DNA of 64,000 nt from contig OZ024743.1 in assembly GCA_964016885.1 (NCBI GenBank), forward strand, positions 296,422,001 to 296,486,000, read 5' to 3'. Both the position numbers and the translations under genes were made by a program. Below are positions 38,394-42,501 of this stretch, piece after piece (position 1 is the stretch's first letter; every line of letters begins with the position of its first letter). The notes beneath the pieces are model-generated. The model was not told the DNA's origin and made no database searches. It worked only from the letters and a program-made list of their open reading frames with translations. This DNA comes from Eledone cirrhosa (Eukaryota).

Positions 38394-38649
38394 TAAAAGG
38401 AATTCCAACTTTGTCTGATTTACTCGTTTTATTTACAATCGTTTTATTTACAATCCATTAAAATTTAAGTTGAAAATTGCAAACTTGACTGTCACCACAC
38501 AATATGAACCTGAAGATTGCGAAAGCATGAAAGTACTTGTTCAATTAACACTTAACATTTAATATTCTACCATACTATTTCATTCTAATACCATTATAAA
38601 TTTTAAAGGATTGTAAATAAAACGAGTAAATCAGACAAAGTTGGAATTC

Positions 38650-40279: not shown

Positions 40280-41194
40280 ATATGGGTGAGTAGAATACTG
40301 CTGGTTGCACATGGATAACATGTTATAAAATGAGTCCCTCATCAGTGATTTACCAAACGATCATGGGTATTTCATCGCATTAAAAATCATATACCTCACG
40401 TTGGAGCGATAATAACTAAAATAAGTTATTAGGACAAAAGAAACGCGTAAAGCGAGTGAGACAAGTAAACAACACAGGGTGAAGCTAACCGAAGATGGAA
40501 ATAAACACAAGCAACATAGTTATTCTTTCAGCATAAGCTGTGTGAATATATGAGCGAGTCAAGAAAACAGACCTTTCGCTAGTGAATCCGGTGTTAGAAA
40601 GAATGAAAACCGTTTTCCCAGCGAACGGGAGGAAGAAAGAAGGGAGAAACAGGGACTGAGTGAGTGGGAGTGCGAGGAAGAGGTCAGTAGAGAGAAAGAG
40701 TTATATATATATACATATATACTTATATATACATATATATATATACACATATATACATATACACACACATATACACACACAAACACACACACACATATGG
40801 TTGATTTTAGACATAATCTATGTGTGTTGGTATTTTAACGATAGTTATAGCTCTGATTTATCTGAATTATTGAGCCCTCTGCCACTCATATCGAATTTTG
40901 TTTTTCGTGAACTCGTGCGCCGATTTCTCGATACTCGATTATTCTACTATATATATATATATATATAAATATATATTCATTAAAATAACAGATTAAAGTT
41001 TAAGCAAAGAATCGCTGCTTTCACCCTTAACACATCTTCTGAAGAAGATCCCGTTAAGGGTGAAAGCAGGGATTCTTTGCTTAAACTTTAATCTGTTATT
41101 TTAATAAGTATTTGCTCTACGGTTCTTATATATCTGATATATATTTATCCTTATCGAGCCCTCTTTGGATTTTAGCCTTCAAATTTATTATTAT

Positions 41195-41243
<49 letters not shown>

Positions 41244-41632
41244 CAAACACATATACACATATATAGATATACACATATACACATATAAATATACACATAA
41301 AAATATATGTATACAGACACACACACATATATATATATGCATATATGTATGTGTACCTGTATGCATATGTATATATATGTATATATATATATGTGCATGC
41401 TACTGTACGTCTGTATACATATATGTATGTACGTATACATGCATACTTACATTTAAGTAAGTGCCATACTAAGAGTGAGAAATGAAATTTCGTTTTCATT
41501 TTGTTTCAATTTATCGTTTTCGGTATGCCTGACCGATTTAACTCACTCAATATGCAAATTAGGCTGCTCAGCCGTTAATTTTCATAAGGAAAGTATATAC
41601 TTTCGAACGTTCAACTATCTGGCAGATGGGTA

Positions 41633-41677
41633 AACGGTGCTGATGATAGCTAACAAGCTTGAAACTAGTACATCGTT
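41633..41677 (+). ncRNA. Type I minimal hammerhead ribozyme (copy 1 of the 464-bp array)
   Basis: AACGGUG-CUGAUGA-U AGCU AACA AGCU U-GAAA-CUAG-UA-CAUCGUU; 7-bp stem I with distal extension (CUGGCA/UGUCAG, UUCAAC/GUUGAA), palindromic stem III, GUA site. Confidence 0.88.
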
Positions 41678-42096
41678 CCTGTGTCAGTGTTGAACAAAAA
41701 GGTGACGTGGTTGCCTTAACACCGTATGGCATAAATTCAGGCTGTTCAGTTTGTTTACAAACGAACAAAGCGACGTTAGCGCCGCTAAACTGATACGTGC
41801 ATATATGTATGTGTACCTGTATGCATATGTATATATATATGTATATATATATATATGTGCATGCTACTGTACGTCTGTATACATATATGTATGTACGTAT
41901 ACATGCATACTTACATTTAAGTAAGTGCCATACTAAGAGTGAGAAATGAAATTTCGTTTTCATTTTGTTTCAATTTATCGTTTTCGGTATGCCTGACCGA
42001 TTTAACTCACTCAATATGCAAATTAGGCTGCTCAGCCGTTAATTTTCATAAGGAAAGTATATACTTTCGAACGTTCAACTATCTGGCAGATGGGTA

Positions 42097-42141
42097 AACG
42101 GTGCTGATGATAGCTAACAAGCTTGAAACTAGTACATCGTT
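42097..42141 (+). ncRNA. Type I hammerhead ribozyme (copy 2 of the 464-bp array)
   Basis: Identical to 41633-41677. Confidence 0.88.
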
Positions 42142-42442
42142 CCTGTGTCAGTGTTGAACAAAAAGGTGACGTGGTTGCCTTAACACCGTATGGCATAAAT
42201 TCAGGCTGTTCAGTTTGTTTACAAACGAACAAAGCGACGTTAGCGCCGCTAAACTGATACGTGCATATATGTATGTGTACCTGTATGCATATGTATATAT
42301 ATATGTATATATATATATGTGCATGCTACTGTACGTCTGTATACATATATGTATGTACGTATACATGCATACTTACATTTAAGTAAGTGCCATACTAAGA
42401 GTGAGAAATGAAATTTCGTTTTCATTTTGTTTCAATTTATAC

Positions 42443-42501
<59 letters not shown>

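Follow-up and report, generated by a model that had tools for sequence, protein, structure and literature searches.

Previous studies have described metazoan non-LTR retrozymes as non-coding repeats in tandem, some hundreds of base pairs long, with a GC content below 45%, a type I hammerhead in every unit, unit sizes of 150–450 bp and thousands of copies, and have demonstrated both their expression and their circles (PMC7229834). Vertebrate retrozymes, defined by a hammerhead in consecutive units, have consensus lengths of 51–972 bp and co-occur with Penelope-like elements; there, the link to Penelope was drawn from pLTR homology and local tandem amplification was suggested (Li, Clavereau and Pollet, 2026; bioRxiv 10.64898/2026.07.22.740005). 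Penelope-like elements themselves leave partial tandems, 5′ truncations, inverted 5′ arms and, as a signature, a tail on one end of the inverted insertion, and they have TA-rich, specifically (TA)n, targets (PMC3846280; PMC8557442). In an anole Penelope element, reverse transcription starts at two internal sites and both DNA strands are cut and extended (PMC11167929). A circle model, a link to Penelope, the tail and a pair of start sites have each been published before. This literature leaves open the mode of copying of animal retrozymes, as well as the reason for the inverted arms and one-sided tail of Penelope-like elements (PMC7229834; PMC8557442; PMC11167929; sources are cited, here and below, for their accessible parts).

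The window analysed here is a stretch of 64,000 nt from the genome of Eledone cirrhosa. A preliminary description had placed about 2.4 near-identical units in TA-rich DNA at 41338–42440, and repeat detection agreed (TRF: period 464, 2.4 copies, 99% matches); the units differ solely in TA-repeat length. Read on the plus strand, this single-armed insertion consists of a 5′-truncated part (333 nt), one full monomer and a 3′ part that runs to a distal fixed site. The predicted monomer, cut to cut, spans 41671–42134 (464 nt, 36% GC; monomer positions are numbered from 41671, the first nucleotide after the predicted cut). It is strongly self-paired (z −9), in part through a long internal TA/TG-rich hairpin (41795–41910) whose length varies among units. 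A TA-rich target tract lies upstream (41198–41337) and a (TA)n target tract downstream (42441–42460). The longest ATG frame in a trimer of the unit is 131 aa, the window's frames over the unit are mostly microsatellite read-through, and no tRNA head was found in the unit.

On these features, namely a type I hammerhead per unit, a non-coding sequence, a GC content of 36%, the lack of a tRNA head and many copies, the 464-bp repeat is an animal non-LTR retrozyme and an ordinary member of that known class. Its type I hammerheads and head-to-tail units set it apart from plant LTR retrozymes, which carry type III hammerheads in long terminal repeats. While the unit had been thought to lie at or above the upper size range of such elements, it is unremarkable beside the published ranges of 150–450 bp and 51–972 bp. 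Compared with the metazoan retrozymes, the family is distinguished by 464 nt with an internal TA/TG hairpin, and its two fixed ends, inverted arms and (TA)n targeting are undescribed in the accessible text on those elements; expression and circles have been demonstrated for them (PMC7229834), whereas for the 464-bp family both are predictions.

The array has several repetitive neighbours. It occupies the TA tract immediately after a short head-to-head element of another dispersed family (40948–41200), which has unequal arms and a hammerhead-like core at its joint (41039). A 101-bp satellite with an internal TA run begins 700 bp past the array and fills more than 20 kb (43163–64000). Elsewhere in the window, two plus-strand ORFs of 164 and 387 aa (22470–24128) may, from motif resemblance, encode a Helitron/PIF1-type helicase. 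Within the unit, ATGCAAAT is a candidate internal promoter element (41552–41559, plus strand, and again at 42016–42023) that is retained in a sister family. We take it to be the octamer motif, which is linked to snRNA-type promoters; as a promoter element of the 464-bp unit it is only a lead. In newt satellite 2, the promoter is of the snRNA type (as cited in PMC2220036).

Two identical type I hammerheads lie on the plus strand of the array, at 41633–41677 and 42097–42141, with predicted cuts after the GUA sites at 41670 and 42134, 464 nt apart. All of this matches the preliminary description, as does the fold of the 7-bp stem I with its distal extension (41612–41692 for the first copy, including the predicted extension). 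In order, the build is a 7-bp stem I, CUGAUGA, U·U, a 4-bp stem II with an AACA loop, GAAA, a 2-bp stem III and GUA. The earlier label of an intact canonical hammerhead overstates the case: because a U·U mismatch closes stem II and stem III has only 2 bp, within the palindrome ACUAGU, the hammerhead is by its build of a weak, dimer-dependent type. Hammerheads with U·U and a short stem III cut poorly as monomers and better as dimers (PMC4209133; PMC7229834), and axolotl HHR_Amex2, likewise with U·U closing stem II, is more active as a dimer (PMC7229834). Among Xenopus hammerhead dimers, eight of nine showed no cutting. The Rfam match is weak (HH9, 18.5 bits against a gathering score of 52, E 0.046); miRNA matches, which swamped the whole-window Rfam scan, were microsatellite-driven and were discarded.

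In an alignment of four families from this genome, 8 of the 13 base pairs that surround the invariant core show two-sided changes, and none of 500 shuffles reached as high a covariation score, the alignment comprising only these four sequences, which we chose, with the structure taken from one of them. Across the 3.0-Gb genome there are 10,718 exact copies of the 31-nt hammerhead core and 0 of its reversed control. By these counts and the stem covariation, the hammerhead is not a chance motif, and the covariation across families, as a sign of selection on the ribozyme, lends indirect support to cleavage.

The same count indicates a mobile family, and not the single-copy local duplication against which the preliminary description had set its retrozyme reading. 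Copies were located by exact sequence patterns, and the junction of the distal end site, S1, with (TA)n gave at least 1,828 exact matches genome-wide. Since this pattern caught about one third of such ends in a first sample, we extrapolate to some 5,000 insertions of the family. In 88 sampled arrays, 66 of 243 full units are identical to the window unit over 273 columns, so the subfamily is young. The 464-bp repeat is one young copy of an abundant, non-coding mobile family.

Insertions of this family do not end at random. Specifically, arms end at S1 (monomer 300–308) or at a proximal site, S2 (monomer 243–253), about 59 nt apart, and both run into (TA)n; these 3′ ends are fixed, while 5′ ends and inversion joints are scattered over the unit. 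The window copy reads through S2 (42375–42385, plus strand), where arms end in other copies, and meets (TA)n at S1 (42432–42440, plus strand), its 3′ end at 42440, without a second arm. A 16-nt match near 41304–41319 was considered as an inverted arm and rejected, the rest of such an arm and an S2 end being absent. Many of the others have a head-to-head structure. All end counts were taken on chromosome C1, among the matches listed, and at a few other loci. Among 80 loci chosen by S1, a script placed the stop of the inverted arm at S2 in 45 and at S1 in 1; a further 9 were unresolved, and in 25 it found no inverted arm. The S1 case proved on inspection to be S2, which gives 46 S1+S2 insertions to 0 same-site ones. 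A hand count of a hammerhead-chosen set agrees: of 27 two-armed insertions for which both ends could be read, 25 are S1+S2, 2 have a broken-off end, and none uses the same site twice. One apparent S1+S1 insertion (L246) was traced to an older neighbouring copy. This strict pairing of one site per arm (46:0) differs from the in vitro result of no strand difference in start site (PMC11167929), and such pairing in retrozymes was not found in literature titles and abstract openings, among which subscription literature is sparsely covered. The (TA)n targets number thousands of sites, and target-site duplications are unreadable inside (TA)n.

Random permutation of array start and end points had been put forward as a mark of a circular template, and this expectation failed: variation is confined to the 5′ ends, the 3′ ends keeping to two fixed sites, for which reason the permutation test is uninformative on circular versus linear RNA. 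From the wider claim of a more-than-unit-length, partly permuted insertion copied from a circular RNA, there survive the length of more than one unit, running through the cut site, and a likely origin from one monomer, but not the random permutation. The failure of permutation points to the copying enzyme. The fixed ends, and a size independent of age, also set the family apart from ordinary satellites, with their unrelated end points and growth with time.

The end rule extends to other families. A second, very young family with a 310-bp unit forms a hammerhead array on the minus strand of the window (15310–16312); it has 5,608 pattern matches, with all 100 among the matches listed belonging to it, arms of up to 19 units, and the same U·U, AACA and palindromic stem III build. 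Its insertions follow the S1+S2 rule in 8 of 8 cases, with a similar S1 motif. The two units had been called sequence-unrelated, which holds outside the ribozyme (one 37-nt blastn match at 76%) but not for the ribozyme build and the two-end rule, which they have in common. Another abundant family with a U·U hammerhead (L033, L061, L156, L258 and others) has two ends about 70 nt apart and CCAAT- and TATA-like motifs upstream; no linked ORF was found for it. A sister retrozyme family, nested in the divergent 464-family array L217 (L217:4500–4750), is homologous upstream of the ribozyme; its stem II is closed by a canonical G-C, and its site is GUU.

A fixed 3′ end with an optional tail, 5′ truncation and an inverted 5′ arm are features of non-autonomous Penelope-like elements, and the microsatellite (TA)n target is that of Neptune and Naiad. 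With this insertion footprint, the 464-bp element works like a non-autonomous Penelope-like element, and the end rule together with the (TA)n targets suggests that a borrowed Penelope-type reverse transcriptase copies its RNA from both sides of a DNA break. In comparison with Penelope-like elements (PMC3846280; PMC8557442; PMC11167929), with which the family shares partial tandems, 5′ truncation, an inverted 5′ arm, a one-end tail, two start sites and TA-rich targets, it has no ORF, a tail of about 59 nt instead of 30–40, and arms of up to at least 12 units.

Autonomous elements with reverse transcriptase and GIY-YIG domains reside in the same genome (10,595 GIY-YIG candidates, of which 150 were scored). 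All five ORFs checked have reverse transcriptase and/or GIY-YIG matches, and four of the five carry a Neptune-type CxxxxCxxC linker, a motif assigned to Neptune and Nematis (PMC8557442). Both readable two-armed copies of an ORF-bearing Neptune-like element (L137, L143) end at two (TA)n sites, one per arm. We infer that the partner enzyme is a Neptune-like Penelope protein. Among 50 loci (30 GIY-YIG and 20 long-ORF), and inserted copies aside, no autonomous element was found to share a pLTR or sequence with the 464-nt unit, and the sole sequence link is a 14-nt T-rich match near the ends. The family shares with the vertebrate retrozymes their definition, their size range and co-occurrence with Penelope-like elements, but here the tie to Penelope is the insertion footprint, the search having turned up no homologous pLTR, and the arrays look born long. 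Chlamys MRC1-type elements are likewise non-coding, multicopy and head-to-tail, with a Penelope-like partner; they share 3′ sequence with that partner, and in most Chlamys elements no canonical hammerhead was found (PMC8557442).

Hammerhead motifs also occur around the Neptune-like elements themselves. A hammerhead downstream of L149 and L140 was rejected as a link to the partner, as it belongs to a separate inserted family. In L140, L143 and L149, hammerhead-like motifs starting UUGAAAA lie downstream of the ORF, about 150–200 nt before both ends, and are possibly a U3-A8 variant. In the window, a stretch at about 38480–38640 matches the 3′-terminal part of a Neptune-like family with an ORF (L134, L138) and has a minimal hammerhead core at 38510.

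As to the template, repeated copying of one monomer per insertion is most likely, and that monomer is probably a circle. A one-monomer template is favoured because copying reads through the cut site, arrays look born long and one haplotype occupies both arms. The first point follows from the S1 arms, 44 of 80 of which contain at least one whole hammerhead. This one-monomer array signature was not found in the accessible literature on retrozymes and Penelope-like elements.

Rare variants trace individual insertion events. An array-wide rare variant is present in 12 of 48 multi-unit arrays. Traced genome-wide, one such variant gave 5 matches in 2 arrays and a second gave 22 matches at 7 places, with several array-specific haplotypes. 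In this seven-place sub-lineage, array-specific traits mark 7 of 7 L169 units, whichever arm they lie on; a variant found in 2 of 7 L165 units is carried by 9 of 9 in L170; a further variant is common to L166 and L171; and L165 mixes two haplotypes. Penelope-type two-site priming on an uncut, multimeric read-through transcript, with the hammerhead a passenger or acting elsewhere, would accommodate the mixed L165 and the L151 array, which could be derived from that of L152 by linear copying. It would also suit a hammerhead of the weak type and the anole system, where ribozyme cleavage was dispensable and the chief substrate in vitro was uncut RNA (PMC11167929). Linear copying, however, transmits unit-specific differences and cannot alone fix a new variant array-wide, as the several array-wide haplotypes of the sub-lineage and the presence of the L165 variant in every unit of L170 would demand; we consider this explanation unlikely.

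Copying of one monomer could also proceed without a covalent circle. Genome-wide, 64 copies start at or near the cut compared with 28 at a control site, although most of this excess is TA microhomology (exact-site starts with a differing base, 10 vs. 13), and in 7 of 80 arms the end lies no more than about 13 nt from the cut, about double the number estimated for chance. Given this mild enrichment of arm ends near the cut, cut linear molecules may make up a minority of the templates. If all were, with the reverse transcriptase jumping from the 5′ end to the 3′ end of the same or a sibling molecule, the result would be an identical one-monomer signature, inseparable by sequence from that of a ligated circle; the mild excess near the cut and the mixed L165 would also fit. 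On the other side, cut-spanning junctions are letter-perfect in nearly all copies listed, jumps in a diverse RNA pool should yield mosaic arrays, which are rare, and circles are documented for coral, mussel and axolotl retrozymes (PMC7229834), so that we give a jumping enzyme little credence beside the ligated circle. Contigs of 470 and 486 nt (runs X1 and X6) were not counted as evidence of a circle. Sequencing runs X2 and X4 behave as genomic DNA, since they cover unique window DNA without differences. RNA-editing scars were sought as an A-to-G strand bias, and none was seen that would mark an RNA step (among array-wide changes, one A>G against one T>C; among those private to a unit, 25 against 16, p 0.21).

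The arrays look born long. Within arrays of 11, 10 and 7 units no internal difference occurs, the size of an array is uncorrelated with its age (rho −0.14, p 0.33, n = 48 arrays), and in old arrays the divergence across arms is close to that within an arm. Repeated 2- or 7-unit blocks in L160, L161 and L168 mean that local amplification also occurs. Insertions of 1–2 units that later expanded in place by slippage or unequal exchange, with the inverted arm from fold-back self-priming, would explain these blocks and would match both the self-priming proposed for head-to-head Penelope copies (PMC3846280) and two symmetric inversion joints, one at a 16-nt palindrome of the unit, but are improbable as a general origin, given that even the youngest arrays have long arms on both sides (8+3 units without a difference), that size does not track age, that the changes in an old 10-unit array form a largely star-like pattern (59 singletons against 11 shared), and that fold-back leaves the precise second-arm stop at the other fixed site unexplained.

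On balance, we favour a non-coding hammerhead retrozyme that is pasted into TA microsatellites by a Penelope-type reverse transcriptase–endonuclease copying one monomer RNA, probably circular, repeatedly. Tandem copies would be transcribed, neighbouring hammerheads would pair through their palindromic stem III and excise 464-nt monomers, and a host ligase would circularise them. A Neptune-like Penelope protein would then cleave both strands of a (TA)n tract, and cDNA would be primed from each DNA end, one at S1 and the other at S2. The two cDNAs would circle the template until drop-off and join head to head, while capture of only one would leave a single-armed insertion, as in the window copy. 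More tentatively, and at somewhat less than even chances, one Penelope enzyme dimer might grip a single ribozyme-made circle at two fixed start sites, prime one per end of the (TA)n break and circle repeatedly. If so, two-armed arrays would record rolling-circle retrotransposition in the genome, and the Penelope "tail" would be the distance between the start sites of the two subunits.

The 464-bp family is small, young and very abundant; as a substrate it comes with two start sites already mapped, with pairing that is nearly absolute, and with Neptune-like candidates for the enzyme in the genome that hosts it. As start sites and candidate enzymes are thus at hand together, reconstitution could test a circular against a linear template and the priming of one site per strand, and it is as a test system that this family has its value.
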